Assembly: GCA_025823825.1 (NCBI GenBank)
Contig: GCA_025823825.1_4720.1
Origin: a phage
DNA: 64,000 nt
Reading direction: 5' to 3' (one strand)
The position numbers and the translations under genes are program-made. Of this stretch, positions 16,305 to 61,327 are shown one piece after another (position 1 is the first letter of the stretch; each line of letters opens with the position of its first letter). Below the pieces are notes generated by a model. The model saw only the letters and a program-made list of their open reading frames with translations. It made no database searches and had not been told where the DNA came from.

Positions 16305-16340
16305 ACACTCCTTTCAGAAAGTTGCTTAAGCAGATTAAAG

Positions 16341-17783
16341 TTACTTTTTCGATGACGCCTTCTCAAGAATCTTGAAAAAGGTCATACCTATACCGACAAC
16401 AGCCGCGGTTATGCTTGCAGCGGCTTTCCAAACATCGACGTTACGTTGACGTCGCGCTTCTTCCGCTTCACGTTGTCTTTTTGCCTCTTCATCACGTCGA
16501 CGTATCTCAGCAGCAAACTCGTCGTGCTTACGTTTGGATTCTTCGTCTCGACGACGAAGTTCAGCGACGAATTCTTCATGTTTGCGTTTAGCCTCGTCAT
16601 CACGACGTTTTAAATCAGCTTGATAATCTTCATGTATTTGTCTACGTAGATCATCTTGACGTTTCATTTCGGCTTGGTGTTGTTCCATCCTACGTTTTTG
16701 TTCGTCTTTAAGCTGATCGAGTTCGGCTTTATGTTGTTCATCACGCAGCTTTGCATCAGCGCGATGCGCCTCATGCATCTGTGCGATAACTGCCTTGTGT
16801 TCATCCGCCATACGTCGCATTTCAGCCATCACCCCTTTAAGGGTTTCTTCTGATGCCTTACGTTCGTAGCTACGCTGGTCGAAATCATTTTTGTAGGCTT
16901 CTTTTTGGATGGGGTCGCGCCAATGCAATGCCGACTCACGTGTCGGAAAAACATTGTACTTCCACATCTCTTTTTCCAAATCTTCGACCGGTACGAAGAT
17001 GGAGTCATTATTCCCGAAGGTAACCAACATACCTGGCGCGCCTGCTCCATTCGTTGGTTTTATTTCGAACGCTTTCCCCAACACGTTAACCCATAAGCTA
17101 TACGGATTATGAAAGTCGGGCGGCGTCCAATGGATAGTGAGTTGTGTTCCGAGAATCCGGAAACCCTCTGTTTTTCCCGTCAAGCTCCGCGCGCACGTTG
17201 CGATGTAGGGGTGATCAATCCCTTTCGTAACGTGGTCTGCGCTTTTGTATTCTCCTTTAACTTTTACGATTGCCACGTTGATTTGCGCGACATAAGCAGG
17301 TTGATTAAAGTTCAACGTGTTGAGGTCAATTTGACATATTTCATCCAGCGTATCGTACCAGTCTTGCTGGTCTAATAGACGCGGCATTTTCTCTGTGTTA
17401 ACAATACGACGGATATGCGGTTTCCTTATCGCATAACCTGTGCCGTTTTTAACACGGAGTATATCCCGACGTCTACCCGCGTAGACGAAGTTTCTGAATG
17501 CACCATTCGCATTAGATACGTCATGGCTGTCAACTATTACAGGACTACGAAATTTTGAACGTCGTACGATCCTGAATGTATTGCCGTCCTCAACCCTACC
17601 AGGAATGTACTGGAACATATTGTCGGAGGTGATAACCAACACGGTATGGCCAGATTCGTTAATACATGCCCATCCTAATTCCAGGTCATATAACGGTTCA
17701 GCATAACCGTCAATGCGATAAGCGTGCGTACCATCCCACGGTTCGAACGCGGTATCACATATTGGCATGGAGGGCATCGTCAA
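16341..17783 (-). CDS. hypothetical protein with E/R/K-rich charged helical repeats and C-terminal hydrophobic anchor
   Basis: ORF; probable ATG start at 17777 with GGAGG upstream; repeats RRRDEE(A/S)KRKH(E/D)EF(V/A)AE(L/I); C-terminal AAASITAAVVGIGMTFF. Confidence 0.7.
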   Translation of the reverse strand: MTMPSMPICDTAFEPWDGTHAYRIDGYAEPLYDLELGWACINESGHTVLVITSDNMFQYIPGRVEDGNTFRIVRRSKFRSPVIVDSHDVSNANGAFRNFVYAGRRRDILRVKNGTGYAIRKPHIRRIVNTEKMPRLLDQQDWYDTLDEICQIDLNTLNFNQPAYVAQINVAIVKVKGEYKSADHVTKGIDHPYIATCARSLTGKTEGFRILGTQLTIHWTPPDFHNPYSLWVNVLGKAFEIKPTNGAGAPGMLVTFGNNDSIFVPVEDLEKEMWKYNVFPTRESALHWRDPIQKEAYKNDFDQRSYERKASEETLKGVMAEMRRMADEHKAVIAQMHEAHRADAKLRDEQHKAELDQLKDEQKRRMEQHQAEMKRQDDLRRQIHEDYQADLKRRDDEAKRKHEEFVAELRRRDEESKRKHDEFAAEIRRRDEEAKRQREAEEARRQRNVDVWKAAASITAAVVGIGMTFFKILEKASSKK

Positions 17784-17978
17784 CCTCCATCAGATTGAAA
17801 ACTATCACGCATAATACATTTCCCTTTTTCTTGTTCTTATCAAGCCGACAGCCGACGGTTTCAGCATCGTTCCTAGCGCGAGAACGACCTTACGTGTTGT
17901 CTATGCCTTATTCATCGCAGGCGTCTGTCACCTAGGTAATGTAAGCGTCAAATTTTTTCTATTCGCAACGATAAACGG

Positions 17979-18026
17979 CATAGAAACCTCCCCCAACCCT
18001 TACGGGCTGAGGGAGGCTGACTTATG
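17979..18026. terminator. hairpin element, copy 3 (3' of the capsid-candidate gene)
   Basis: cata-gaaaCCTCCCcc-aaccc-ttac-ggg-ctga-GGGAGG-ctgacttatg; irregular inner loop. Confidence 0.5.
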
Positions 18027-18115
18027 TATCACGGTGCCGGATGAATGTCCGGTGCAATGAAACCATCCGCAACGTTGTCGTCAAGAATATCATCCAACGA
18101 AGCAGCTACGGTAGT

Positions 18116-20338
18116 TCAGTTAGTCTGAACCGGCAGCTTGATGTTTTCGGTGTAGACCTTACGCAGGTTCACAACGTTAATCAGACCCAGCAGCGGGCAG
18201 TTGTTAACGAAGCGGCAGCGCGGCTGAACCATGGTTTCTTTAGAAACCTGACCGTTACGGGTAACCTGAGCAACAGATACCAGTTCCGGTACATACAGGA
18301 ACATACCGAAGGTCAGCGGATCCGGAGAACCCTGGATACCACGAGACAGGGTCACGAAGATCTTATCGCGCAGCATGACGTTCGGGTTATCTACAACCAC
18401 GAAGTTGAAGCTTACACCAACGGTACGGAAATCGCCATCGGTCTGCAGGAACTGCGGGATGTAGTTGTCAGTTGCTACTACGCAACGCGGTTTCTCATCA
18501 GCGTTGGAAGACAGCAGCTGCAGAGCTGGCTGATAACCAGACTCGGAGTACATGCGGTATGCCATCTCACGAATCACGTTCATGATCGCAGCAGACACTT
18601 CAGCACGACGTTCTGCAGTGGTGGTACCCTGAACAGATTTCTCCAGGTCCAGATTGATTTCTTCGAACCACGGACGGATCAGGTAACGACCGAAACCTTC
18701 GATCTGGATGTCACCGAACTGACGGAAGCGAGAGGTCGCAACCGCTTTCAGTGCGTCTTTGTAGCTGAACAGTTTCTCAACCATCAGGTTGTCGAAACGT
18801 GCGTTAGCAGCTTGGATCAGAACGTCCAGGTCAGCAGCGTTTTCTTCCCAATCCAGCGGACGAGGAATGGAGAACGGAGCCAGCAGGCCGATTGCGTAAC
18901 GTTCTTGCTTCATGTTGAAGTCAAGGTGCTTACCGCGCTCACGACGGTTGCTGTTGTTACGGCGGATACGCAGTTCGTAACCAACCAGTTTGAAGCTCAG
19001 GTCTTCAGCCAGTTGTTTGAACTCTTCGCTCTTACGCGGTTGTTCGATGTTGTCCTGATCAACCAGGCGATACAGTTCAGCGTTAGCGCCGTTAACACGC
19101 AGACCCGCTTTCTCTACGTTGGAAGAACCGTAAACTTCGATCGCCAGCTGAGCAGCGGATTTCGCATCGATGATGTCCTGCAGCGCTTCAGCTTTCGCAC
19201 CTTTAACGTCTTTGGTGTTCTCATCAACGAAGATGGAGTGGGTGTCGAACGCCAGGGTCATTTTGCGGAAGTCGCCTTCCAGGGATTTCTGGAAACCGTT
19301 GGTGATCAGACCAGATACGTCGAACGGTACGTAAGAGGTTTTGCTGTGCTTGGTAGATTTGATTTCTACCAGGATTTTGGTCAGCGTGATCTGGGCGTCC
19401 AGCGCGTCGGTGTTGTCGCTGTAACCGTTAGCCAGAATGCTGTCGTCTTCAGCGATACCGATCATGTCGATCAGTTTATCAACAGCCAGGTAAGACGTTT
19501 TATAAGTTACGCCTTTAATTTCGATGTCGCGCGGAGCAACGATCGTTTTATCAACGAAGTACTGCGCGTTGGCATCGTCAGCACGATAGATCGGATGCAG
19601 ATCGGTCACGTCGTTGGACAGAACGTCGTTGTACATGAACGCATCCAGCAGCGGACGACGTACCCAATCAGCCGGAGTACCGTCAGCGTTACGACGCAGG
19701 TGGTTGAACACCAGCGGGCGACGGAAAGATACGTCGTAACCGATCTGGTTCGGAGCCAGAACGATGGTGTTATACAGTTCGTTACCCATGCGGCTCAGAC
19801 GAGAAGCCTTCACGTTGAACACAACGGAGTACGGCATCATGTCACGCAGTTCTTTCTGGTCGTAGGACAGCTGAACCAGTTCTTCAGATTCGCAACCGCA
19901 GGAATCAGCAGCCATCATGACGAAGTTAGAGCTGTCAACTTCACGACCTGACGGAGTGGTGCTGATGTTCATGGAACGTGCTTGTTTAGCATATTCTACC
20001 GGGTTACCATGAGCCAGCATGATCAGTGCTGCTGCACGAGCCTGCTGTGCGTTCATGGTGAACAGCTGTTCTTCAATACGCTGCTTCTCTTCCGGAGTGG
20101 TGGTTTCGAAGCCCAGCATGGACAGAACCGGTTCTTCGGCTTTACGGATGTCGCTGCTGAAGCTCTTAACATCCATTTCGTTAACCAGTTTGTCCATGGA
20201 TTTGAAATCAACCTTAGAAGCAGATTCCATAGACAGGAAGGTGTTCTCCAGACCTTTGTCTGCTGGTTTGCTACCATTAGCGGTCAGGAACTGGCGAGTG
20301 GCCGCGACCTGTTGGCTAAGAAGGGTTTTATCATTCAT
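18116..20338 (-). CDS. highly expressed virion protein, best guess major capsid protein (740 aa); tail sheath is the alternative
   Basis: ATG start with aagga RBS; strongest host-optimal codon bias in the window (CTG/CGT/GGT/AAC); size fits jumbo-phage capsid proteins; identity not verifiable without search. Confidence 0.6.
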   Translation of the reverse strand: MNDKTLLSQQVAATRQFLTANGSKPADKGLENTFLSMESASKVDFKSMDKLVNEMDVKSFSSDIRKAEEPVLSMLGFETTTPEEKQRIEEQLFTMNAQQARAAALIMLAHGNPVEYAKQARSMNISTTPSGREVDSSNFVMMAADSCGCESEELVQLSYDQKELRDMMPYSVVFNVKASRLSRMGNELYNTIVLAPNQIGYDVSFRRPLVFNHLRRNADGTPADWVRRPLLDAFMYNDVLSNDVTDLHPIYRADDANAQYFVDKTIVAPRDIEIKGVTYKTSYLAVDKLIDMIGIAEDDSILANGYSDNTDALDAQITLTKILVEIKSTKHSKTSYVPFDVSGLITNGFQKSLEGDFRKMTLAFDTHSIFVDENTKDVKGAKAEALQDIIDAKSAAQLAIEVYGSSNVEKAGLRVNGANAELYRLVDQDNIEQPRKSEEFKQLAEDLSFKLVGYELRIRRNNSNRRERGKHLDFNMKQERYAIGLLAPFSIPRPLDWEENAADLDVLIQAANARFDNLMVEKLFSYKDALKAVATSRFRQFGDIQIEGFGRYLIRPWFEEINLDLEKSVQGTTTAERRAEVSAAIMNVIREMAYRMYSESGYQPALQLLSSNADEKPRCVVATDNYIPQFLQTDGDFRTVGVSFNFVVVDNPNVMLRDKIFVTLSRGIQGSPDPLTFGMFLYVPELVSVAQVTRNGQVSKETMVQPRCRFVNNCPLLGLINVVNLRKVYTENIKLPVQTN

Positions 20339-48924: not shown

Positions 48925-51717
48925 TTATCTTACGTTATTGCTATTCTGTTGTTCACTGAACCAACCATACACCTTGAGATCGGTACCGTATTTCAATGCG
49001 ATATACGCATTCAGCGCAGCACAGAACAAAGACGCGAATGCCCATATCAGCGAAGGATCAACATCTTCCGTTACCACTGGGAGAGTATTATCCGGTTCCC
49101 ATGATGGTGAACTGTCCATGAACGTCGCGTACCATCCCCGCCGTTGTTCTTCGGTGGTAAAGTCGCTGTGGGGTTCCAATGCTTCTTTTGCCAGACGTCG
49201 ATATTCGAACATATGCGTTGCTAAAGCCGACGAGTTACCAGATTCGCCTTCATAGTTCGGATCCACCGCATAACAGAGTTCTGTTGAATCTAACAAAGCA
49301 ACCGCCTGTGTGATGCTGTCGGCAGTGCCTGCACCATAGAGCTCGATAGACCGCGAAAGCTTCTCACAGAACGCATTTAACGCGGAAGGATTGGACACCT
49401 GAAGGTCAAGGCCTAATGTCCACGGATAGTTACTGAATACACCCGTAAACCGTGGCATAACACCCAACAGATGCTGTCCGATTACAGCGCGGTTATAAAC
49501 AGCCCTGTTATAGACTTGAAACGCAGCCTCCAAGGCTTGGTTATAATGACGACGAAGTTCGTCACGCGAGTTGCGGAATCTGTTTGCCGCGAGACTCGTG
49601 GCTGCGACGCTACAAACATCGTAATTGGTGGACGAGAGCACAACCTCGTTAAGATCGAACGCTTCCTGTTTCAATGTTCCGCTAACAGCCACCGCTTCGC
49701 TGTTCGCTTTATCGACAACAGTACTCAAAGCGTTGATGTAACGCTTAGCCCGGACTTCCAGCCATTGTGCGATGCCGAGAATATCCACCGCAGCTTTAGC
49801 AAGATCGCGAGCATTCACGATTTCGTTCTTCAACGCCCCTAAATCTTTATTTTCAGGCGATGAGGCTTGTTGACGAATCATGCTGTTCAACATGGTAAGC
49901 AGATTATCCAACTCATGTCCACTGACCTTGTTACGTGCATCGGTAATCGGCCCTTGCAGGAATTTACGGCAACCATCGTTGTATCGAATCAGTTTATCCA
50001 CATCGATAGATTCGTTCGTGGATTCCTTGAACTGATTCTTCAATTCTTCACGGTAATCATGGATTTCACTTGCGAGATTATCGATAGTGATACCGTTATG
50101 TCCAAGAAGAACTTTATTGAAGTTACCTTTCTCGAATGCCAGAGCAAGACCTTCACGAATCTTAGCGAGTTTATCCTGATCGAGTTCACGACCGTTCGAT
50201 AGCTCTTTCACTTCCGAGCTGATTAATGCCGAAACGTTACCCAGATTGTCGGTAACCCCTTTGAACGCTCCCGACCAAATCGTTCCTGCTTCAGCGTATT
50301 TCGCAATGGTCTGAATACCGACGGTGTGCAGCGACGCTAAACGTTTCTTCGTGCCTTCGGTAAGCAGAGCGTCTTTAGCTCGCGTAAGCTGACTGTTATT
50401 AGCTTCTGCCTGCTGAATCGCTGCTTTCGCACTTCCATTACGCCAGCTCTTAACCAGCCAATCAACCAAACGTTTTAGGATATTGACGGTGTATTCCATT
50501 GTCCGCCGTAACGTTTCCCACGCGCTTTCTGCGGTATAGATGCCGTACCCTTCCATCTTCGTTGGGTCAAAGAAACCTTCCTGCATGAGATCAATACGGG
50601 TGTAGCCATCAGCAGCTTCTACTTCCGCCTGGGTTTTATCCCAGAAGTCGTCGCTCTTTGCAGCAACCGCTGTATCTTTAACGTCCAGGATGATCTGACC
50701 AACCGTTTGTGCAAACAGCAAGGCCGCACGTACCGATTGTGCGAACATCCGCTGATATTTGATTCGAACGCATTGCATCTGGGTTAGCAGATTCAGTTGT
50801 GCGATCCCATCCAAGGTGCTATCCTGAGCAAGCCCTTCGGCTTTAGCGATAACCTGTTTTACACGTTCAGCGACATCACCATACTGCTGGCAAACATCCC
50901 GCAGAATACGTGCCGCGAAGACCCCGGTACCGATATAGTTCAATAGGTCTTTTAACGACCATTCGGTCGGACAATCGGTCGGCGCAATAGGGAGTAAGCA
51001 ACCATCACCGTCCATGAATCTCTCTAATGCGCTAATATCCTGATTTTCTACGCTCATGGGGATATCGACATCAGCCGCTTGCAGATCCAGCATCTGTTGT
51101 AGGATGTTGGTATCGGCTTGTACAAGCGTCGCAAGCGCTTGGCTGTGTGCGATTATTGGTAACGCAGGTGACCATACTGCAGCAAGCTTGTCGGCGTGAC
51201 GTTGAATGGCATACCCCATATCCTCGATCACATCGGGATGCTCGATAACCCCCTGAAGCGTTTGATGTAGCTCACCGAGTTGCTGAGACAGATCGACCAT
51301 CATGGTGTTGAAGGTTTCGCCATCCTCTTTGTGGTTGTCCAGACGCTCGAGTTCATGTCGAAGCAATGTGACGAGCTGTCCGTTGCCTTCTTGCTTCAGC
51401 TTGCTTTCCATTAACGTAATGGCTTTATCGACGATCTGACACGCTTCACGAAAACCGGTTGTGGAAGGAAGCTCTGTCCATAACGCCAGCGGTTTACCGT
51501 CAAGGGCTTCCGGCATCGATAACGAAAGCATAGACAGTTGTTGACGTGATACTTGCTGTTCACGGTGTAGTGTTTCTTTTAACGCCAAGAGATCGTCAAG
51601 AAACGCGCCGTTAAGGGTGGTCGTACGCGGTGTTGAATTAATACCGTCAGTTAACGATTCAAGCACCAGGAGACCGTTATCAGCTGAAGAGAGTCCCGCG
51701 GCAAGATATTTGTTCAT
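48925..51717 (-). CDS. large virion/head-type protein (930 aa), probable paralog family D
   Basis: Long ORF; ATG lies in TTTATG right after hairpin with ggag RBS; helical central region resembles family D. Confidence 0.8.
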   Translation of the reverse strand: MNKYLAAGLSSADNGLLVLESLTDGINSTPRTTTLNGAFLDDLLALKETLHREQQVSRQQLSMLSLSMPEALDGKPLALWTELPSTTGFREACQIVDKAITLMESKLKQEGNGQLVTLLRHELERLDNHKEDGETFNTMMVDLSQQLGELHQTLQGVIEHPDVIEDMGYAIQRHADKLAAVWSPALPIIAHSQALATLVQADTNILQQMLDLQAADVDIPMSVENQDISALERFMDGDGCLLPIAPTDCPTEWSLKDLLNYIGTGVFAARILRDVCQQYGDVAERVKQVIAKAEGLAQDSTLDGIAQLNLLTQMQCVRIKYQRMFAQSVRAALLFAQTVGQIILDVKDTAVAAKSDDFWDKTQAEVEAADGYTRIDLMQEGFFDPTKMEGYGIYTAESAWETLRRTMEYTVNILKRLVDWLVKSWRNGSAKAAIQQAEANNSQLTRAKDALLTEGTKKRLASLHTVGIQTIAKYAEAGTIWSGAFKGVTDNLGNVSALISSEVKELSNGRELDQDKLAKIREGLALAFEKGNFNKVLLGHNGITIDNLASEIHDYREELKNQFKESTNESIDVDKLIRYNDGCRKFLQGPITDARNKVSGHELDNLLTMLNSMIRQQASSPENKDLGALKNEIVNARDLAKAAVDILGIAQWLEVRAKRYINALSTVVDKANSEAVAVSGTLKQEAFDLNEVVLSSTNYDVCSVAATSLAANRFRNSRDELRRHYNQALEAAFQVYNRAVYNRAVIGQHLLGVMPRFTGVFSNYPWTLGLDLQVSNPSALNAFCEKLSRSIELYGAGTADSITQAVALLDSTELCYAVDPNYEGESGNSSALATHMFEYRRLAKEALEPHSDFTTEEQRRGWYATFMDSSPSWEPDNTLPVVTEDVDPSLIWAFASLFCAALNAYIALKYGTDLKVYGWFSEQQNSNNVR

Positions 51718-51776: not shown

Positions 51777-54581
51777 TTAAGCTAATTTACCGAAACCGGC
51801 TTTCTGCAGTTTCTCGTTGATCAGTTTTGCTTCCGCGAAAACATAATCACGATACGCAGTCACTAACGCATCCACACGTGAACGCAAGGCTTCTTCGAAG
51901 CTATACCACGCAGCGATTTCACGAATCTGTGCGTTGATATAATCAACGGTTGAGCGAAGCTCGGTTGCGTTTTCTTGCGGGATGGCTTTCACCTGGCGAG
52001 CAACGTCATTTAAACGACGGAACTGCGTTTCGATTTCTTTAAACTTACTGTCGGCAAGTTTGCTGAATTCGTCACCGGAACGTGTAAATAACAGATAGCT
52101 GTTGCCGTCAAGTGCGGTCGCTAACTGCTGAAGTACGTTGGTGTCCGGATACACAGGAGTACCGCTTTGCAATACTTTCTCACCGAATTCCGCGAAGTCC
52201 TTCGGCGGTAAGTGCGCAGACGTTGTCAACTCGTTGAAACGGAAAGTCAGCGAATTGTCATACAGCATCCGGTACGCTTCCATGCCCTGTTTCATGGTAC
52301 CAGCCAGGTTGGCCAGACGCGGAGCAATCTCACCCTCTTTAGCGCGTTTCTGGTCTTCTAACGCCCCTTCCAGTTCTTTACACTGGTCATTCAGATACAC
52401 GATACGATCGGGACGCAGACGACGCATCTCACGAAGAATAGTATCCAGCTTACCTTCCTGGAAATAACCCAACGTTAAAGACGTACACGCTTGCTGAAGA
52501 CGATCGAAGACCGGTAAGGTCACCATCTCCTTACGGATACCATCAACAATCGCAGAAACAGCCGAAAGTTTCTGTTCTGTCGTTAATGGAACATCAGAGA
52601 CCGACTTGCTGGGCGCACCAACAACGTTACGCATTGCGTCGGTATCCTCGGTTTTATCAACCTCTTTACGAACATGCTCATCAGGAACATAAACGTTCGC
52701 ATTACGTTTCGCCTGCTTGATGGCATCGTTGGCCGCTTTTTCGGTGGCTGCTACGCTATCGGCACGTTTCTTCAAGAGTTCAATAATCCAGAGCACCAGA
52801 CGACGAATCGCAGTGTAGGCTGTCGTGATGATGACACCGATAACCGCCATCTTCATGATACCGAACGATTCCATGGTCGGCTCTAACGCCTGGTCGGGCA
52901 TATACCGTTCACGCAGCTCCAGATAGATCTGCTCATCCGGTTTGCTGATCTCGCCACGATGCGAAGTCCGATAGATGGCTTCGTCAATCTCAACAAGATC
53001 TTTGCGTGCCTGACGGTCTGTTTCGGTCAAATAAGCGCAGCCGGATACGTCGTCTTCAAAACTTTCGAACTTAAAGAAATCGACAACCATCTTGGCAAGC
53101 GCCTCTTTCTTAGCAGGATCGAGTGTCTTCGCATCTTCTTTTTGCTTATCCATTTTTTCCTTGAATTTCTCTTTGTAGTCATTCAAGGGTTTTACCGCTC
53201 TTGCTTTCAACGCGTTATAGATAGCTTTCCACTCATCGTTACGTTCGAGGACAATGAAATGGTTTTTGAGTTCGAAAGCGCGATAGCGTGCAACGAGCTG
53301 TTCTACCTGAATATGAGCGAGTTGGATATCCATTAACCAACGCGACATCGCCGAGATCAAACGGCTATAAGCGAACAACGTTTGGTAGGTTAACTTCATG
53401 TATGTTTCATACAGCTCAATATCGCCGCTCTGAATATTGGCTGTTGGATTCATTTCCTTTGTTGCCTTGAAGACCTGTTCTGCTTCTCTCAGCGTCTTTT
53501 CGAACTTAACGTCATTAAACGCAGTGAATGGTTCAGCCAACTCATGCATTTTATCGTGGAGTTCGCGGATCCAAGCTTCCTTGCTGTCGCGGATGGTGTT
53601 TTCATCATGGAGCACGGTTTGATGTTTTCGTACCCATTCTTCCACGATATCAGCAGCGGAAACAATCGGAACGCGATCTGAAATGAGCGGGACGATCGTG
53701 TGAAGCGCCCCGACACATTCTGGCGTGTCCCAGTGTTTCTGGAGTTCATCACGGAAACGGTTAATGTTTTCTAAGGTGGTACCTAAATCAAGGAAAGTGC
53801 CGCCATTATGACTCATCTGTGCAACCAGATCGGCAAATACCTTTTGTTTTTCGATGACAAAAGGAACCATCCGCATAAGCCATTCAGCAGTTGCTTTAGC
53901 CTTTTCTTTCAGGTTCTTATCAGCGATTTCCTTAAGGTTAATCGCGCTACCGTATCCAGCAAGTTCGTTGTAGACGTCGTTAAGCGTCATTTGTTTATCC
54001 AACATTTCTTTGAAACGTGGATAATCTGCACCTAACGCGTCGATGACTTCTTGGATGATGTCGTCTGTGGTAGCGATAAATTTATTTGTGCCGCCGTAAT
54101 GCTTCCAGATTTTCTGCAGCGTCTTCTTAAAGAATTCGAAGACGAATGTCCAGATACGTTTGATGAGTTCCCAGACTTTCTTCGCACCATCGACAAACAG
54201 TTTAGAGACCTTGGCAACGAATCCTTCCTGCACTAACTCAACGCCGTTACGTGATGGGATTTCCGTGAAGAAAGCATCTGGCAGTTGTTTCGGGAACGCA
54301 TCACCAAGACGCATACGCAATTCGGGTACATCGGCACGAGAAATACCACGCGTCGTTAGCTGCTCGTGAAGACGAACGTTTTCTTCACCAGAGGCTACGA
54401 ATTCGTTAACGTCAAATGAAACCAGTTCTTGATCTTCGGTGGTAACGACGCTTGAACCATCGCTGGTTTGGATGTCTTCGTCAGGGAACGCCATGAGCAT
54501 ACCGTGACGCATTTCAACCACTCCGTAATCGGTTGCTAAACCGAATTCGTTGTGATCGGGGGTAATAACTGGGATACTCAT
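51777..54581 (-). CDS. large virion/head-type protein (934 aa), paralog family D
   Basis: Long ORF; ...VELVQEGFVAKVSKLFVDGAKKVWELIKRIWTFVFEFF... aligns with the family D core. Confidence 0.8.
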   Translation of the reverse strand: MSIPVITPDHNEFGLATDYGVVEMRHGMLMAFPDEDIQTSDGSSVVTTEDQELVSFDVNEFVASGEENVRLHEQLTTRGISRADVPELRMRLGDAFPKQLPDAFFTEIPSRNGVELVQEGFVAKVSKLFVDGAKKVWELIKRIWTFVFEFFKKTLQKIWKHYGGTNKFIATTDDIIQEVIDALGADYPRFKEMLDKQMTLNDVYNELAGYGSAINLKEIADKNLKEKAKATAEWLMRMVPFVIEKQKVFADLVAQMSHNGGTFLDLGTTLENINRFRDELQKHWDTPECVGALHTIVPLISDRVPIVSAADIVEEWVRKHQTVLHDENTIRDSKEAWIRELHDKMHELAEPFTAFNDVKFEKTLREAEQVFKATKEMNPTANIQSGDIELYETYMKLTYQTLFAYSRLISAMSRWLMDIQLAHIQVEQLVARYRAFELKNHFIVLERNDEWKAIYNALKARAVKPLNDYKEKFKEKMDKQKEDAKTLDPAKKEALAKMVVDFFKFESFEDDVSGCAYLTETDRQARKDLVEIDEAIYRTSHRGEISKPDEQIYLELRERYMPDQALEPTMESFGIMKMAVIGVIITTAYTAIRRLVLWIIELLKKRADSVAATEKAANDAIKQAKRNANVYVPDEHVRKEVDKTEDTDAMRNVVGAPSKSVSDVPLTTEQKLSAVSAIVDGIRKEMVTLPVFDRLQQACTSLTLGYFQEGKLDTILREMRRLRPDRIVYLNDQCKELEGALEDQKRAKEGEIAPRLANLAGTMKQGMEAYRMLYDNSLTFRFNELTTSAHLPPKDFAEFGEKVLQSGTPVYPDTNVLQQLATALDGNSYLLFTRSGDEFSKLADSKFKEIETQFRRLNDVARQVKAIPQENATELRSTVDYINAQIREIAAWYSFEEALRSRVDALVTAYRDYVFAEAKLINEKLQKAGFGKLA

Positions 54582-55069
54582 GCATTCTCTCCTTGCAGTG
54601 CGTTAGCGAAAGCCGTTGCAAGTTGCGCAACCAGTTTCGGATCAACGCCTTCGATAACGTCAGGCAGCCCTGCGGTTTCTTGGTCACGAACAGCGGAGGC
54701 TAATAACAGCATGGTTTCAGGTGCGGTCGGCTCATGCACCATGCGGTAACGCAGGCACCAGAAGTAGCGAGCAACGTCTAACGCATCAGCCAGCCCGATA
54801 ACCAGTACCTTGTTCAGCTTATCCAGCCCTTCACGGATTTTAGGGAGATGTTCGCGAACGAAAATGCTATCTGCGGTCAGATCTTCTTTTTCAGCGAATA
54901 CCGGCATGCTGTAACCGGCGATGTAACCAGCGGCAATACTTAACGCGCGGGTCTGTTGTTCGGCTGGGAAGTCACGTACCAGGTCTTTCAGCTGAACGGC
55001 GAAATCAGAAATATTCATGTTAAATTCCTTTATAGTAAAATAGAAGAGATTAAGCGATAATGGAATCAA
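54578..55069 (-). CDS. small hypothetical protein (~145-163 aa)
   Basis: ORF; track start overlaps upstream gene, probable ATG near 55019 (MNISDFAVQ...). Confidence 0.55.
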   Translation of the reverse strand: MIPLSLNLFYFTIKEFNMNISDFAVQLKDLVRDFPAEQQTRALSIAAGYIAGYSMPVFAEKEDLTADSIFVREHLPKIREGLDKLNKVLVIGLADALDVARYFWCLRYRMVHEPTAPETMLLLASAVRDQETAGLPDVIEGVDPKLVAQLATAFANALQGENA

Positions 55070-56360
55070 GAGTCGCTGCGGTTTTGAACAGATCGCTGTT
55101 CATTGTAGAAGAAAGGACTTGCTGAATTTCTTCCTGTTTAACGGCTTTACGAACTCCAGGACGAAGGATAAGCGTAACAATCTGCATAAATGTACGGTTG
55201 TTGTTCATCGCGCTTAACGTTTCATCAATTGTTTTGATGGTATCTAACGTAGTGGAGCGTATGTCGCTAGGGAGGTCACGATCTTTCAGACGTATAATCA
55301 AATCTTGTTTGATTTTTCTGAATCGTTCCATATCGTTGTCATAGATGCTGTATGTCGGATCTAACCAAACTGCAAGCGCCATAGCAGCAACAAATATTGC
55401 CATACCAAGAATATTAACCGAGGTGAAGCTGATCGCTATCAAAATTGTCACGGCTGCATCTTTAATGAAGGAGAGCCAGAACATCGTTTTTGACTTCATG
55501 GAGTTGGTGCCATAAAGTCGAAACATTTTAGCAAGCCCGCTAACGAGATACTCCCCACTGCCGTGACGCGTAGCGAACTGATCGGCCATGAATTCGGAAG
55601 CAACGTCGGTATATCGTCCAGCGTTGTTTACATTTCTTAACTGCATCGCTTTGTTAGACACGTAAACCGTGTACCAGACACTACCGTCGTCTGAATCACT
55701 GATTTTGTCTACGTCGACGTTGGTATCCAACGTTTTGTTTAACGCTTTCGCCAGTTCGATACGTTTTACCTTATCGGTTGTTCCCAACAGTTCGCGCTGC
55801 ACGGTCATGATTGAGGCTTCGACACGAACCGTTTCCGACAATGTTTCAAGGAAGGTAAATGCGTGCCCGATTTCATGCAGCATTATGGCTGCTTTTTCTT
55901 CCGGAAGAAAGGGTTCTGTTGCTGTTAGCAATTCATACGTGATGGCAGAACGAATCTTCAATTCTTCAAAGATACCGTAAACACGACCTTTTTCTAAATC
56001 GACGTAACCGACAGGTGTATCTTTAATCTTCTTAAGGAGCGTAACACCATCAGCACCACGCATCCATAACCGGTGATAGTCTGCCAGGATTGTGTTGTTT
56101 GTCGAAATATCCGGCGGGTATACGTAGGCATTCATCTGACCCATTTTCACGTCGACCGAGAATTCGATGTTCAACCCCGTATAGCGTTTGACCATCTTGG
56201 TTAAATGACCGTCCTTGAAAACGTTTAAAACATCTTTTTTATCCAGTCCCTGTTTGCTTCTGAAGAACTCGGTCATTTCCTTGAACAAGGAACCATCCTG
56301 AAACTTGATGGCCTCCATCGTTAATTCGTCATGACCATACACGCGTTGTAGTAATGACAT
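55050..56360 (-). CDS. putative membrane zinc metalloprotease (HExxH, M48/M56-like)
   Basis: 436-aa ORF; IMLHEIGHAF motif; downstream acidic ...EFMADQFATRHG; two hydrophobic segments (...VTILIAISFTSVNILGMAIFVAAMALAVWL). Confidence 0.65.
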   Translation of the reverse strand: MSLLQRVYGHDELTMEAIKFQDGSLFKEMTEFFRSKQGLDKKDVLNVFKDGHLTKMVKRYTGLNIEFSVDVKMGQMNAYVYPPDISTNNTILADYHRLWMRGADGVTLLKKIKDTPVGYVDLEKGRVYGIFEELKIRSAITYELLTATEPFLPEEKAAIMLHEIGHAFTFLETLSETVRVEASIMTVQRELLGTTDKVKRIELAKALNKTLDTNVDVDKISDSDDGSVWYTVYVSNKAMQLRNVNNAGRYTDVASEFMADQFATRHGSGEYLVSGLAKMFRLYGTNSMKSKTMFWLSFIKDAAVTILIAISFTSVNILGMAIFVAAMALAVWLDPTYSIYDNDMERFRKIKQDLIIRLKDRDLPSDIRSTTLDTIKTIDETLSAMNNNRTFMQIVTLILRPGVRKAVKQEEIQQVLSSTMNSDLFKTAATLDSIIA

Positions 56361-56581
56361 TGTACACTCTCTAAATTTACGTAAATTTAAGGGCTAATGG
56401 ATCGGCTGGCCGCACCAATCACAATGTGTTCGTTGCTATGCAACGGCATTCATAGAAATACCTTTTGACGGTAACATCACCCATCACACCCCAAGCAATA
56501 AGAGTGGTCGGTTAAAAACAACAGAACGTGAGGATGATATAGAAATTCACCTTTTAACACCTATTACGAGTTTAGCAAGCC

Positions 56582-58333
56582 ATGAGCGAACAAGAACGAA
56601 AACCTAAGAAGAAACTGCTCGGTATTCAATGTCGACACATCAGTTATAACGAAGCGAACGATGGCAGCAAGAACGACCTCATGATCGCAAAAGAGATCAT
56701 GTTCTTTGATGACAATACGCAAGCGACGAACCTTCGCTTCTTTGAGAATTACAAACGTCCGTTTTGGGTGACGGTAGAGAGTAAACGTAAGAACAAATAT
56801 AAAAAGGAAAGCGAGAAGCTCTCGCATGTGCGTCGCTACGATGTCCGCCAAAGCGAACTGGTTGAAAAGATCAGCTCGGTACTTTATAAAAGACGTGCTG
56901 ACGATAACACCCGTTTACAGCAGCTTGCACGGAGTCCATACCTCTATGGAACGGACGTTAGCGCCAGCTGTTATTTAAAAACCCAGTACAACACAAAATG
57001 GCCGGAATACGTCGATAAATTACCCGCTTCCATTGCCTGTTTCGATATCGAAACCGACGTTGTCCACGGACACGGTAAGATCGTTTGTATGTCTATTACA
57101 ATGGGATACAATGCGATACTTTGCTATACCAAGGACTTCGTTGGTCATATTCCGAATGCCATTGAGAAAACCCATGAGAAGATTCGATATTACCTGGCCG
57201 AACGTCTGAATACCAAAGAAGATCCCCACGCATTCGAAAAATATCAGTACGATGTTCGAATCGTAGAAAGCCCGGCACAAGCGGTCATCCAATGCATGCA
57301 GAAGGTTCACGAATGGCAGCCGGATTATCTCCTTGGCTGGAATATCGCGTTCGATATTCCGCGTATGCTCCAGGCACTGAACGAGGAAGGGTATCGTCCC
57401 GAGGATGTTTTCTCCGATCCTCGCGTACCACCTAAGTATCGTATTGCTCGCTGGGTGCCACCGAAGACCGACAAGGTATCTGCTTCAGGTCGTAAAACCA
57501 ACCTTACCCTCGAGCAAACCTGGCCGATGTTTTATACGATGGCTACGTATCAGGTTATGGATGCGATGTGTGGTTATAAGTTCGTTCGTTTAGGAAGACC
57601 GGATGAAGGACGCTATTCACTCGATGCGGTATTAGAGCGAAATAAATGCCATACGAAATTAAAAGCAATTCCTGGTACAGAAGGGTTCACGGAGCTCGCC
57701 TGGCACGAAGAGATGCAAACGAACCATCAAATCGACTACGGCGTATATAACCTTTGGGATAACCAGGGTATTGAGGCGTTGGACCAGAAAACAAAAGACT
57801 ATTCGATGACCATCCCTATCCGTTTAGCGGCGTCGGATTTGAAAGATTTCAGTTCTAACCCTAAACGTATCTGCGATAAACTTTTCTTCGTTTATCTTAA
57901 CCGTGGGGAAGTCATGGGATGTACCGCTGACGACATGACCCAGGAAGAAGATAAGTGGGTTATCTCACGAGCTGGACATATCGTCACATTACCATGCGAT
58001 CTCATGGCTGACAACGGCATTCATCTCTTCTGGGATATGCCGAACCTGAGAAGTTATATCCGTCTATTCGTTGCAGACCTTGACATTAGCAGTTCATACC
58101 CAAATGGGCAGATCCTGTTGAATCTATCCAGAGCATGTGTTTTTCGTGAGCTCTCGCGCATTGAGGGCGTCTCTGACTATCAATTCAGGAAGTTAGGTAT
58201 CAACTTTATTACCGGAGGTAAAACGAACGCTGTAGACTTCTGTAGAATCGTTTATAAAGCACCGTCGATGTTTGAACTTTTAGAACATTTCGATGCGACG
58301 CGTCCAAAAGAGGAAGCGCGGACCATCGAATGA
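56582..58333 (+). CDS. family B DNA polymerase, N-terminal part (3'-5' exonuclease domain plus polymerase motif A)
   Basis: 583-aa ORF; Exo I CFDIETD, Exo II GWNIAFDIP, Exo III YNLWD, motif A-like DISSSYPNG; no motif B/C before stop. Confidence 0.7.
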   Translation: MSEQERKPKKKLLGIQCRHISYNEANDGSKNDLMIAKEIMFFDDNTQATNLRFFENYKRPFWVTVESKRKNKYKKESEKLSHVRRYDVRQSELVEKISSVLYKRRADDNTRLQQLARSPYLYGTDVSASCYLKTQYNTKWPEYVDKLPASIACFDIETDVVHGHGKIVCMSITMGYNAILCYTKDFVGHIPNAIEKTHEKIRYYLAERLNTKEDPHAFEKYQYDVRIVESPAQAVIQCMQKVHEWQPDYLLGWNIAFDIPRMLQALNEEGYRPEDVFSDPRVPPKYRIARWVPPKTDKVSASGRKTNLTLEQTWPMFYTMATYQVMDAMCGYKFVRLGRPDEGRYSLDAVLERNKCHTKLKAIPGTEGFTELAWHEEMQTNHQIDYGVYNLWDNQGIEALDQKTKDYSMTIPIRLAASDLKDFSSNPKRICDKLFFVYLNRGEVMGCTADDMTQEEDKWVISRAGHIVTLPCDLMADNGIHLFWDMPNLRSYIRLFVADLDISSSYPNGQILLNLSRACVFRELSRIEGVSDYQFRKLGINFITGGKTNAVDFCRIVYKAPSMFELLEHFDATRPKEEARTIE

Positions 58334-58382
58334 ATCAAGTATGTTGATCCTCGTTTAACAAAAAAAGAAAACGCATGCGAAG

Positions 58383-58435
58383 CCCCTCCCCCTGGCGGAA
58401 GCCGGAGGGAGGGGTGGAGGTTTTATGCGTTTTTA
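58383..58435. terminator. hairpin element, copy 11, with T-run on plus strand (terminator of DNA polymerase fragment gene)
   Basis: CCCCTCCCCC-tggcggaagccgg-AGGGAGGGG-tggaggttttatgcgttttt. Confidence 0.6.
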
Positions 58436-58879
58436 ATTATTGCTGCTGGGGTTATCGCCCGGATTATATTCGATGCTGTAGGCGACGTCGCGGTCTGTCG
58501 TATGAACGACAAGCGTGACGGGGAAATCATAATGCGCGGTTTTGTCTCGAACGAACGGGGTAAAGAGATCCGTATAACGTATTAAGTCTTCCCTGGTGTA
58601 ATCGGAAGGGAAGAAGGCATCGATGGTTATTGAATCTTCATAGAGGCGTATGATCAGCTTATCCAGAAGGTTGCTATATTGGTTAGCTGGGGTGACGTTC
58701 AGGTGACAGAAGTCACCGTCTTCTGCTTCTCGCAATACCCATACCGTGGTATCCTGTAACGTATTTTCAAGGATCTCGAAAATGCAGTTTGCTGTAAGTC
58801 TTAGTTTATTTGTTACTTCATGGTTAGGGGAATAATGCTCACGAATGTTTTTCACTGCGTCTTTGATAGAGAAAGTCAT
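58433..58879 (-). CDS. small protein, paralog family A (C-terminal DFPVTLVVH...EYNPGD motif)
   Basis: Track ORF 58433-59110 trimmed to internal ATG at 58879 (MTFSIKD...) because a separate-frame ORF occupies 58893-59186. Confidence 0.55.
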   Translation of the reverse strand: MTFSIKDAVKNIREHYSPNHEVTNKLRLTANCIFEILENTLQDTTVWVLREAEDGDFCHLNVTPANQYSNLLDKLIIRLYEDSITIDAFFPSDYTREDLIRYTDLFTPFVRDKTAHYDFPVTLVVHTTDRDVAYSIEYNPGDNPSSNN

Positions 58880-58892
58880 TGCTGCTGCTCCT

Positions 58893-59186
58893 TTAAAAGA
58901 TATCAAGCCATGAGGATGGAGGAACCAGTTCGCTGGTAAAGTAATCGCCACTGATACCACTATCATCAAAGTGACGTTCGTTGTAACACTGGACGAGCTT
59001 ACCTCCACGTTCTTTCTGATACCATCCAAGGATACTATTAAGACCTCTGTCCACGCATTCGAATGCTTGAGTAATAACATCCTCAACGACGGAGGCTGCC
59101 GTGGGACCATTGAATAGACGATCTAAGCGCTTTTTCATCGATTTGGTTTTCTCGTTCATGATTTCTTTTCCTGTTATAATCGGCAT
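58893..59186 (-). CDS. small hypothetical protein (88-97 aa)
   Basis: ORF; first ATG coincides with hairpin-flank TATG; an alternative start 27 nt in has agga upstream. Confidence 0.45.
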   Translation of the reverse strand: MPIITGKEIMNEKTKSMKKRLDRLFNGPTAASVVEDVITQAFECVDRGLNSILGWYQKERGGKLVQCYNERHFDDSGISGDYFTSELVPPSSWLDIF

Positions 59187-59227
59187 ACAACCCTTCCCCG
59201 GCCTTGACGGCTAGGGAAGGGGCTATG
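59184..59227. terminator. hairpin element, copy 12
   Basis: cata-caaCCCTTCCCC-ggccttgacggcta-GGGAAGGGG-ctatg. Confidence 0.5.
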
Positions 59228-59235
59228 CTACGTTG

Positions 59236-59664
59236 TTATGCTTCGCAATCAGCTGAAGGCGTCGCGCCTTTCTTACCAGCGATACGCCAAATCCGACACG
59301 CTGGGTAATGGTTAACCTCTAGAGAGCAAGGAATGTTATATTTCTCTTCCAGCGCATAAAGACATTTCGTTAGCTGCTCCAGCGCGTTCTCGTCGTGTCG
59401 TAACGCGTGGTGACCTAATCGATGTTGGTCGTTCTTTATATACGCCTCGAAGAGAACATGTTGGCGATGTACGCTGACGTTTACAGCCTCGAGTATAGCT
59501 TGGTCGAGCATACGACTAAAGCACATCAACGAGTCAGATACGTTTTCTCGCTTAACCAGATCGATCATGGCGGGAATATACGAATGGTCGATGTTATCGA
59601 TGACCGCTTTAGCGACGGAATCAGCAACGTTCATCTTTTTAATCCCTAGTTTGTTATTGATCAC
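59236..59664 (-). CDS. small protein, paralog family B member 1 (142 aa)
   Basis: Shares V(A/V)KAV(I/N)DNIDH...MIDL(V/I)K...EEKYNIP(C/F)SLEVN with 59671-60066. Confidence 0.6.
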   Translation of the reverse strand: MINNKLGIKKMNVADSVAKAVIDNIDHSYIPAMIDLVKRENVSDSLMCFSRMLDQAILEAVNVSVHRQHVLFEAYIKNDQHRLGHHALRHDENALEQLTKCLYALEEKYNIPCSLEVNHYPACRIWRIAGKKGATPSADCEA

Positions 59665-59670
59665 GTATAT

Positions 59671-60066
59671 TTACTCTTTGACGTCAGTTGTCGTTTCGAC
59701 ATGCTTCTCACTACTGACGTACCAGAGCAGGTACGTTGGGAAAAGATTGACCTCTAAGCTAAATGGGATATTGTATTTCTCTTCCATTTTGCAGAGATGT
59801 TCTTTAAGTAAATTTCTCGCGTCTCTGTCACCACGAACAGAGTGCCAGTCTAGTTCTTTGTTCTCCTTTACCAGGATCTCTACGATGATACGTTGCTCGT
59901 GAACCTCGGTTTTCACAGCGGCAAGTAAATCGCTGCTATCAAAACGGGTAAAACGAATGTATGAACCAGGTGTTTTTTCTTGTTTAATAATATCGATCAT
60001 GGTAGAAATGCGCGGATGATCGATGTTGTCGTTAACAGCTTTAACGATGGATTCTACAATGCTCAT
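59671..60066 (-). CDS. small protein, paralog family B member 2 (131 aa)
   Basis: Tandem duplicate of 59236-59664 by protein similarity. Confidence 0.6.
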   Translation of the reverse strand: MSIVESIVKAVNDNIDHPRISTMIDIIKQEKTPGSYIRFTRFDSSDLLAAVKTEVHEQRIIVEILVKENKELDWHSVRGDRDARNLLKEHLCKMEEKYNIPFSLEVNLFPTYLLWYVSSEKHVETTTDVKE

Positions 60067-60098
60067 TTTTTATCCTTAATGTTATCGATTTGGAAATA

Positions 60099-60866
60099 TT
60101 ACTTATTTTTGCTTTCTTTATAGACAGTTGTTACCCACGATGGGAAAGCCGGATGGAAACAGAGCGTGAACGTAACTGTCGTATCGTATTTAAACGCACA
60201 GTTCACTAACCGGGTATCTAACGTTTTCCTTAATCCGTCATCATCGTTATCGATGATGGTCATATCTCTTAATATCCCAAGCACGTTAACGCCATCGGGT
60301 GTCTGGGTTACGACAAGTCGTCGTAATGGCCCGCATGTATAGTCACGTACAAATCCTTTCTTCGGGTCCGATACCCTGTTTAACGCATCGTGATTTTTGA
60401 TGAATTCATCGGCGATACAATAGGTTTGTTCCCTTGCTTTATCGGGATCGTATTCTGCTAATAGTTCCTTCGTGTCGAACGTTATCATGTTATTATCATT
60501 CGATTCAGAAGGGAAACATAAAACTAAACGAACAGGGTATTCGTATTGATCTGTTCTTGTTTCGAAAGCATTAGCTAGACACGGCTTGTATGCCTTTGCG
60601 TCGACATTGTCCAAACATGGATGCAATAATGCATGAATAACGGCACCATCGTCAGTTAAACCGAATTCCAGAAATTGTACCCTATCAGTATCCGCTACGG
60701 TTTTCTGAAGGTACGCTTTACCGTTAACAATATCGGTATCCCACATATCGTCGTTTAACGATTCTTCAAACTTATCGAATATATGGTTTACGAGATTGAC
60801 GAGTTCATCAATACGGCACTGTTGGTTGAATTCGATTAATCGTTGAACTTTATCTTTGATAGACAT
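60099..60866 (-). CDS. small protein (255 aa), probable paralog family A
   Basis: ORF; YEYPVRLVLCFPSESNDNNMITFD resembles the family A C-terminal motif. Confidence 0.65.
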   Translation of the reverse strand: MSIKDKVQRLIEFNQQCRIDELVNLVNHIFDKFEESLNDDMWDTDIVNGKAYLQKTVADTDRVQFLEFGLTDDGAVIHALLHPCLDNVDAKAYKPCLANAFETRTDQYEYPVRLVLCFPSESNDNNMITFDTKELLAEYDPDKAREQTYCIADEFIKNHDALNRVSDPKKGFVRDYTCGPLRRLVVTQTPDGVNVLGILRDMTIIDNDDDGLRKTLDTRLVNCAFKYDTTVTFTLCFHPAFPSWVTTVYKESKNK

Positions 60867-60868
60867 GA

Positions 60869-61327
60869 TTACCCATTAGCTCCTTCTTCGTCTGGAGAGT
60901 ATTCCATCGTGTAGAATTCATAACCATCGGAAAACTTGAGTGTTAATGTAATAGGGAAATCGCACGGCATAGCTGATTTCGTAAATGCGTTATTAGCAAC
61001 ATCGGCCAACCGACGTATAGCATCAGTCCCGCTGACGCTGAACGGTAGTTGTATGTTGATAAGGATGCGGTGCTTGTAAACATGGAAAACAACGGTACTG
61101 TCAAGATAAACGCTATGGAACGGTATTGTTGGGATGCGTTCCACGATGGTAAAATACGTCCCGTCATTATCGCTATGTCCCACCGACCAAATATCGGATT
61201 TGCGTAGATTTTGTTTGAGAGATTCGATGCTTCGAGTGACGGTCTCATCAACAGGCGTGACGTAAGTGTCTTTATGCGAGTCGAAAAGTTCGTTGACGTT
61301 AGATTCGAATGAATACATTGTTGCCAT
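60869..61327 (-). CDS. small protein, paralog family A (152 aa)
   Basis: C-terminal CDFPITLTLKFSDGYEFYTMEYSPDEE. Confidence 0.6.
   Translation of the reverse strand: MATMYSFESNVNELFDSHKDTYVTPVDETVTRSIESLKQNLRKSDIWSVGHSDNDGTYFTIVERIPTIPFHSVYLDSTVVFHVYKHRILINIQLPFSVSGTDAIRRLADVANNAFTKSAMPCDFPITLTLKFSDGYEFYTMEYSPDEEGANG

Follow-up and report, generated by a model that had tools for sequence, protein, structure and literature searches.

A putative M48-like metallopeptidase encoded by a core gene of nucleus-forming jumbo phages and probably carried in the phage head

The gene and its distribution among jumbo phages

We examined a stretch of phage DNA of 64,000 nucleotides (contig GCA_025823825.1_4720.1 of GenBank assembly GCA_025823825.1; hereafter the window) and within it the minus-strand open reading frame (ORF) at 55050-56360, which the ORF list of the window gives with an ATG start and a product of 436 amino acids. 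The region is 96.9% identical at the DNA level to the Escherichia coli jumbo phage vB_EcoM_Goslar (Goslar), a nucleus-forming chimallivirus, in which the same protein is gp067 and is annotated as a 'hypothetical protein'. A preliminary description of the window had seen in this ORF the motif LHEIGHAF, an acidic segment about 90 residues further on and two hydrophobic helices, and had read it as a membrane metalloprotease. All of these elements are present: the translation contains LHEIGHAF, with HEIGH at residues 162-166, and E256-FMA-D260 lies 94 residues C-terminal of H162. The features of the gene are as follows.

55050-56360, minus strand: complete coding sequence, 436 amino acids plus stop; orthologue of Goslar gp067, core gene cg22, PHROG 2767
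56313-56360, minus strand: residues 1-16 (MSLLQRVYGHDELTME), a predicted N-terminal propeptide with the putative cleavage site T-M-E16/A17 at its end (from conservation and alignment to gp45 of phage SPN3US)
55491-56312, minus strand: predicted catalytic domain (M48-like gluzincin), residues 17-290, made up of helices and a sheet of five strands, then a long active-site helix and a Glu-bearing helix
55863-55877, minus strand: HEIGH, residues 162-166, with predicted ligands H162 and H166 and predicted general base E163 (from translation, family conservation and profile alignment)
55560-55595, minus strand: EFMADQFATRHG, residues 256-267, with the predicted third zinc ligand E256 in E-x-x-x-D, then R265 and G267 (from translation, conservation and profile alignment)
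55362-55490, minus strand: hydrophobic helical hairpin, residues 291-333 (KTMFWLSFIKDAAVTILIAISFTSVNILGMAIFVAAMALAVWL), a putative membrane anchor (from Kyte-Doolittle hydropathy and the AlphaFold2 model)
55053-55361, minus strand: C-terminal helical domain, residues 334-436, with conserved Y340, R346, K359 and Q413 (from an alignment of 193 sequences and the AlphaFold2 model)

In the AlphaFold2 model HEIGH sits inside a long helix (153-193), two helices (291-313 and 316-332) lie at the hairpin, and helices run across 343-435 of the C-terminal domain, a part of the protein (residues 334-436) for which no family matches were found. Two ORFs antisense to the gene (55345-55515 and 55669-55980, both on the plus strand) had no support and were dismissed.

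The protein matches PHROG 2767 over positions 11-439 of 442 (E 7.6e-80). According to the annotation of PhiPA3, whose own version is gp086, the orthologues are phiKZ gp084, 201phi2-1 gp145 and EL gp52, and SPN3US gp45 is a homologue of the window protein by position as well as by sequence. The supplement of PMC10299810 equates core gene cg22 of the nucleus-forming phages with Goslar gp067, phiKZ gp084 and RAY gp286 and calls it a 'putative virion structural protein'; the window gene has both the full-length homology and the position beside a divergent DNA polymerase gene by which cg22 is recognised. That it is a Chimalliviridae core gene, common to all nucleus-forming jumbo phages, is strongly supported. 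We regard SPN3US gp45, phiKZ gp84, 201phi2-1 gp145 and PhiPA3 gp086 as true orthologues, since they are ~24-25% identical to the window protein over their full length and their motifs, hairpin and synteny are all as in that protein. No difference of kind separates it from them, the window protein having Thr instead of Ala at P3 of the cleavage site considered below.

A TBLASTN search placed the gene in 265 phage records, and all of the records listed are jumbo phages of ~210-320 kb. Frequent annotations among them are 'virion structural protein' and 'structural head protein' (phiKZ-type phages, PhiPA3 and Erwinia phages), and isolated GenBank labels read 'peptidase' (Erwinia phage AH04), 'beta-barrel assembly-enhancing protease' (Proteus phage 7) or 'membrane protein'. 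An exhaustive profile search returned 3,433 clusters at 50% identity, the best 150 of which are every one family members; among the matches listed, nearly all members have 402-490 amino acids, and their domain begins 10-20 residues into the protein. The nearest protein in the databases (99% identity) is encoded on a contig of 237,498 bp in a Salmonella enterica serovar Newport assembly, which suggests a Goslar-like jumbo phage sequenced alongside, or infecting, Salmonella.

In the literature that we searched there was no peptidase name for the cg22 orthologues, though a few GenBank records carry such a label, no functional description of phiKZ gp84, Goslar gp67 or 201phi2-1 gp145, and no functional description of an M48 peptidase or metalloprotease in jumbo phages, Chimalliviridae or phiKZ. 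An antisense screen of phiKZ left out most of the structural genes and makes no mention of gp84, and cg22 is absent from the non-essential core genes named in the available part of a transposon sequencing study of phage PCH45. The gene family is already known and named, so that it is not new as a gene.

Predicted catalytic site and relationship to the M48 peptidases

All 192 full-length relatives have HExGH and E-x3-D, always 94-96 residues apart from H to E, and R265, which follows E-x3-D, is kept in 189 of the 192 (98% in the alignment of 193 sequences). Mean conservation of that alignment is low, the sequences being otherwise about 20-50% conserved, and only eight residues (G129, H162, E163, G165, H166, E256, D260 and R346) are 100% invariant; E172 (H162+10, 96%), Y340 (94%) and K359 (96%) are also well kept. 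R346 and Y340, which lie just C-terminal of the hairpin, may fold back on the active site as transition-state or substrate-binding residues. We estimated from residue frequencies that the chance of a lone HExxH in a protein of this size is ~1%. Because HExGH and E-x3-D are invariant and their spacing is fixed, a chance origin of the motif can be excluded, and so can the outcome that the preliminary description had itself named as fatal to its proposal, namely an isolated chance HExxH.

We compared a profile built from 30 relatives with PDB sequences. The segment 'ftpeEiaAilLHEiGHa' aligned with residues 324-340 of ZMPSTE24 (H335-E336-x-x-H339) and 'tssEflADqFAtRhGaG' with residues 412-443 (RRFE415FQADAFA), which places E256 on E415; we take H335, H339 and E415 to be the zinc ligands of ZMPSTE24, E415 being the third, and E336 to be its catalytic base. 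In Pfam the window protein alone scores 11.6 bits (E 0.24) for Peptidase_M48 (PF01435) against a gathering cut-off of 20.3, short of the curated threshold, so that the relationship is a remote one and the protein is not a canonical member. When the 30 relatives were searched one by one, 20 of them matched Peptidase_M48 at E<=1 (best E 2.5e-5) and any other family was matched by three at most. The single window sequence found no match in NCBIfam and none by phmmer in the PDB. Aligned with hhalign to single E. coli sequences, the catalytic-domain profile gave a probability of 77% for HtpX (E 2e-5; strand and HExxH segment only) and 49% for BepA (the aligned region stopping at HExxH), the HEIGH of the window protein being set against the HEISH of both enzymes; we consider these alignments supportive but weak. 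M48 proteins were also the best hits in structural matching, with sequence identities of 13-21% in the structural alignments, and the gluzincin fold is superposable on solved M48 structures.

The protein thus shows HExxH on the active-site helix and, as predicted from the alignment, a third-ligand Glu in E-x-x-x-D within the range of ~60-95 residues downstream found in M48. Given that the agreement with M48 extends to the fold and to both motifs, and that no family member departs from the site, there is strong support for the prediction that H162, H166 and E256 form a gluzincin zinc site with E163 as catalytic base. We conclude from these comparisons that the protein is probably a gluzincin of the M48/minigluzincin type with its catalytic site intact, too divergent to count as a canonical Pfam M48 member.

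The known M48 peptidases (Ste24p/ZMPSTE24, HtpX, BepA/LoiP/YcaL and Oma1; PF01435) share with it the HExxH helix, the E-x-x-x-D on a later helix and a core of beta-sheet and helices, and they provide its best structural match and the only recurrent Pfam family of its relatives. Their membrane topologies are another matter. Ste24 has seven transmembrane (TM) helices around a chamber, and HtpX has two N-terminal TM helices and two more between HExxH and the Glu; the window protein lacks an N-terminal TM segment, the seven-TM chamber and the second TM pair of HtpX, and its sole hydrophobic hairpin follows the Glu motif, which is neither the Ste24 nor the HtpX arrangement. After this single hairpin comes a helical domain of 100 residues with an invariant Arg, and the protein further departs from M48 in having a propeptide of the capsid-targeting type and in being encoded by a virus and stored in a capsid. 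The minigluzincins (proabylysin, projannalysin and selecase) are archaeal proteins of ~100-110 residues with no extra domains, unlike the window protein with its additional N-terminal alpha/beta subdomain, hairpin and C-terminal domain. We conclude that this domain layout belongs to no described M48 subfamily.

The preliminary description had named M48/M56-type enzymes (HtpX/BlaR1-like) as the nearest likeness. Its M48 half is borne out by motifs, profiles and fold, and its M56 half fell away: M56 proteins ranked below M48, Pfam returned no M56 match, and of the layout of BlaR1 and MecR1 (a four-TM N-terminus, a cytoplasmic loop that holds the zincin, and a penicillin-binding sensor at the C-terminus) the four-TM N-terminus and the C-terminal sensor are absent here. 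The accompanying suggestion of a signal-transducing protease has nothing pointing to it either, the protein having neither the four-TM N-terminus nor an extracellular sensor domain.

In three rare metagenomic relatives (P0158, P0178 and P0179) the entire M48-like protein makes up the C-terminal half of a longer product (825-1237 amino acids); these products are either real fusions or gene-calling artefacts. Their N-terminal halves match no PHROG of known function and no recognisable family, and because that family cannot be recognised the three give no Rosetta-stone link. At the locus of P0158 the fused gene comes after a SNF2/ResIII helicase gene and is followed by a gene of 138 amino acids.

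Leader, head packaging and hydrophobic hairpin

Residues 1-16 of the alignment of 193 sequences are poorly conserved (0.25), but the Glu that ends them, E16, is conserved in 99%. In a logo of the site from 30 relatives P3 is A, S, T or G in 29, P1 is E in 29 and P1' is A or S in 28, with leaders of 8-26 residues. E16 of the window protein (...ELTME/AIKFQ) and E20 of SPN3US gp45 (MGHWQKHITSLADAKAVASE/SIGFQ) fall in one alignment column. The correspondence matters for what mass spectrometry has shown of the SPN3US protein: the parts of PMC5694885 drawn on here list gp45 as 'Head. Processed at ASE-20', give it a spectral count per mass of ~2.9 against ~1.0-1.2 for the packaged RNA polymerase subunits and ~0.8-1.1 for the prohead protease, and single it out as the sole processed head protein with a propeptide (20 residues) as short as the capsid-targeting sequences of phage T4. 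According to PMC10052503, gp45 is a confirmed substrate of the SPN3US prohead protease gp245. The published specificity of the prohead protease is A-x-E in SPN3US and S/A/G-x-E in phiKZ, and the predicted site at the end of the leader across the relatives matches it. The window protein likewise has a short leader ending in a motif of the (A/S/G)-x-E type, the P3 Thr of its clade lying outside the documented residues, and from this alignment we infer cleavage at TME16/A17 in the window phage.

That the orthologues are present in purified virions and heads is strongly supported, and we hold it highly probable that the protein is both an enzyme of the proposed kind and packaged in the head. A metalloprotease had seemed out of place in a structural-gene neighbourhood when the window was first described; this surprise does not survive the comparison with SPN3US, where the orthologue gp45 is itself a head protein with a leader cut by the prohead protease.

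The packaging of an enzyme in this way has a precedent in Alt of phage T4, which enters the head via a capsid-targeting sequence and is ejected with the DNA. To our knowledge T4 packages no metallopeptidase or hydrophobic-hairpin protein of the kind described here, and there is no sequence relationship between the T4 internal proteins and the window protein. The likeness lies in the short leader that the prohead protease cuts after Glu in the T4 internal proteins IPI-III and Alt and in their storage in the head, and it is one that PMC5694885, in the portion consulted, draws for gp45.

The hairpin contains two hydrophobic windows of 19 residues, 294-312 (Kyte-Doolittle 1.74) and 315-333 (2.31). 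No hydrophobic segment was found before residue 290 on the same scale, which leaves no N-terminal TM segment, and no signal peptide was found. Of 158 sequences scored, 154 have a hydrophobic segment of at least 1.6 C-terminal of the Glu motif. Over the 193 sequences the hairpin is the least conserved region of the protein (mean top-residue frequency 0.21), and it is hydrophobic in nearly all of them; its uncharged stretch has a median of 32 amino acids (43 at the 95th percentile) and a mean Kyte-Doolittle value of 1.84, and 91% of sequences have a Gly or Pro at its centre. Because it stays hydrophobic while its sequence is unconstrained, the hairpin appears to behave like lipid-facing helices, and its length suits a tight or re-entrant hairpin. 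It could be a membrane anchor after injection.

Neighbouring genes and possible roles

The gene is divergent from a DNA polymerase gene (56582-58333, plus strand), an order kept in SPN3US, PCH45, phiKZ and a distant metagenomic relative, and it heads a minus-strand run in which genes of 146, 934 and 930 amino acids follow, reaching 48925. Sigma-70-like sites were absent from 56361-56581, and between 56700 and 48700 no terminator was found on the minus strand. The neighbouring features are as follows.

56361-56581, no strand assigned: divergent intergenic region of 221 bp between the protease and polymerase genes, presumed promoter region for both
54578-55018, minus strand: small downstream gene, 146 amino acids, Goslar gp066, candidate partner; homologue of phiKZ gp85, PhiPA3 gp087 and SPN3US gp46
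51777-54581, minus strand: next gene, 934 amino acids, Goslar gp065, with a TM-like segment at 574-597; start overlapping the small gene's stop
48925-51717, minus strand: gene of 930 amino acids, Goslar gp064, with a TM-like segment at 890-908 near the C-terminus (from the ORF and a TM-like window)

The small gene had been described as an upstream gene at 54578-55069 and a possible partner of the protease. Since both genes are on the minus strand it is in fact downstream. As in the Goslar annotation, it begins with the ATG at 55018, which an AAGGA Shine-Dalgarno sequence precedes, and not with the TTG at 55069. The partner idea itself fares better: a gene of 138-154 amino acids lies directly 3' of the protease gene at every locus examined, including those of the most distant relative (P0052) and of the fused P0158, and the conservation of the pair therefore supports a partnership, which we consider likely. 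A homology search with the small protein found only one near-identical protein, as would befit a fast-evolving sequence. When a profile combining gp85, gp087, gp46 and the corresponding neighbour in PCH45 was aligned to it with hhalign, the probability was 92% (E 5e-7). Both phiKZ gp85 and PhiPA3 gp087 are annotated as virion proteins.

The 934-residue protein has a weak match to a tape-measure PHROG, and neither it nor the 930-residue protein has any other family assignment; no significant similarity was detected between the two, nor between either and SPN3US gp47. The latter, encoded by the next gene in SPN3US, carries a TM helix and is an ejection protein that is essential to the phage, according to PMC5694885, where its position is said to be occupied by highly diverged genes in related phages. 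The 934-residue gene occupies the corresponding place in the window and, going by position only, may belong to the same functional module as the protease.

Two observations concern the other side of the intergenic region. The polymerase gene of the window (region 56582-58429) is an uninterrupted ORF of 583 amino acids with a full-length match to PHROG 3011. We compared it with positions 14585-18190 of the Goslar locus (L001): there the polymerase coding sequence stops at L001:16084, an insert of ~1.78 kb with the NUMOD1/HNH homing endonuclease gp069 follows, and homology resumes at L001:17862. Since its ORF is uninterrupted where Goslar has the insert, the window phage carries an insert-free allele of the polymerase gene, lacking the intron or homing endonuclease. 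The stretch 3' of the polymerase gene (58430-60880) is not collinear with Goslar and forms a variable island of small minus-strand ORFs, in which only 58937-59244 aligns to Goslar, at 78% identity against 92-97% in the flanks.

The reading that we favour, with a probability of somewhat under one half (about 0.45), is that of a head-packaged M48-like protease that is ejected with the DNA and anchored by its hairpin in a host membrane. The leader of 16 residues would act like a T4 capsid-targeting sequence and bring the protein into the prohead core, where it would be trimmed at TME16/A17. Tens of copies of the enzyme may then be stored in the DNA-filled head, with the gp85-like neighbour perhaps shielding the hairpin, and at infection these would be expelled along with the DNA and the remaining internal proteins. 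The hairpin (291-333, Gly/Pro-centred, with ~32-43 uncharged residues) would insert from one side into the inner membrane or into the early phage infection (EPI) vesicle, after which the peptidase might cut at least one protein, either of the host envelope or of the phage and ejected with it. A path of this kind exists: in Goslar, ejected internal proteins reach the EPI vesicle together with the DNA, and the vesicle derives from the host inner membrane and encloses the injected genome. A zincin motif is also found in another ejected protein, the virion RNA polymerase of phage N4, which is encapsidated and expelled into the host and whose C1 domain has a conserved HExxH (PMC13434306); C1 belongs to a polymerase of 3,500 residues, and the likeness to the window protein drawn here is that of the HExxH motif.

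A 2025 review (PMC12908238) states that no protein factor is known for vesicle formation, for transport across the vesicle or for the exit of the genome from it, and counts all three among the open questions of the field. On a bolder version of the favoured reading, the protein would be the first identified membrane-active enzyme of the EPI vesicle, needed to form, remodel or open it. A re-entrant hairpin would insert from the lumenal side, and the enzyme might clip host inner-membrane proteins, activate co-ejected channel-formers (for example the TM-bearing neighbours) or free the genome to the nascent phage nucleus. We regard this specific version as unlikely.

The principal competing role is in the maturing head itself, where, once the serine-type prohead protease has cut the large propeptides of capsid, portal and internal proteins, the peptidase might break down the released fragments or scaffold until they can leave the capsid, or might process particular internal proteins, the copies in virions being leftovers. 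We think it rather unlikely, although it shares its location with the maturation substrates, being in SPN3US a head protein cut by the prohead protease, and although the enzyme is conserved in all phages with such an unusually protein-rich head. The published accounts of SPN3US and phiKZ, in the parts consulted, add that these heads shed very long propeptides (111-254 residues) that need clearance and note smaller fragments as beneficial. The same accounts of SPN3US have the mapped maturation cleavages all following the A-x-E rule of the prohead protease, with no second specificity reported in those parts, and they give gp45 a level in mature heads that exceeds that of the prohead protease (2.9 against ~0.8-1.1), which sits poorly with a leftover. 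A capsid free of lipid, moreover, leaves unexplained a hairpin that is conserved and hydrophobic while its sequence is unconstrained. This last feature would suit a protein that serves the producing cell late in infection, from within its membrane, for example by timing lysis, excluding superinfecting phages or remodelling the envelope; its presence in the virion would then be secondary. The M48 relatives HtpX and BepA work on envelope proteins, which is in keeping with such a role, and the hairpin could enter the inner membrane there. We nevertheless hold it to be improbable: the conserved cleavable leader with its 99% Glu speaks for targeted incorporation into the prohead and not for incidental carry-over, a signal peptide and an N-terminal TM segment are both missing from the protein, the gene lies in a head and virion block and not among lysis genes, and the abundance in SPN3US heads is substantial.

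Two further possibilities deny the protein its activity or its family. It might be a pseudo-protease, a structural or scaffolding component of the head that keeps an M48-like fold without catalysis, as the 'structural' label that alone appears in every curated record might imply and as the lack of any reported activity in the searched literature would allow. Pseudo-enzymes usually lose catalytic or ligand residues; here the three metal ligands, the catalytic Glu and D260 are strictly invariant over 193 sequences that are otherwise only ~20-50% conserved, and because of this invariance the pattern is that of an active enzyme, which makes a pseudo-protease very unlikely. Least probable of all, to the point that we give it almost no credence, is that HExxH arose by chance or belongs to a non-peptidase alpha-ketoglutarate-dependent HExxH hydroxylase or to a DNA-protein crosslink protease of the SprT/Spartan type. 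The 192/192 invariance disposes of chance. Against the SprT type, the third ligand here is the Glu of ExxxD aligned to E415 of ZMPSTE24 and not a His as in SprT, M48 proteins outrank Spartan, and only one of the 30 relatives matches the Pfam SprT-like family compared with 20 for M48.

If the interpretation is right, an anonymous 'virion structural' core gene becomes a testable enzyme, and tools for such tests are at hand in Goslar in the form of CRISPRi-ART knockdown and the packaging of tagged proteins into virions. A virion-stored protein that joins a leader of the capsid-targeting type to an M48-like core, with a hairpin after the catalytic part and then a helical tail, would be a new combination within M48. 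Should the enzyme instead act in head maturation, giant heads would use a second, metal-dependent protease beside the prohead protease. On the favoured reading the next cell probably receives the enzyme along with the DNA. Few phage enzymes are known to be ejected, examples being T4 Alt, the virion RNA polymerases and transglycosylases. An M48-like protease carried in the head would, if true, be a new class of ejected cargo and a specific candidate for those membrane processes of the EPI vesicle that still lack an explanation.

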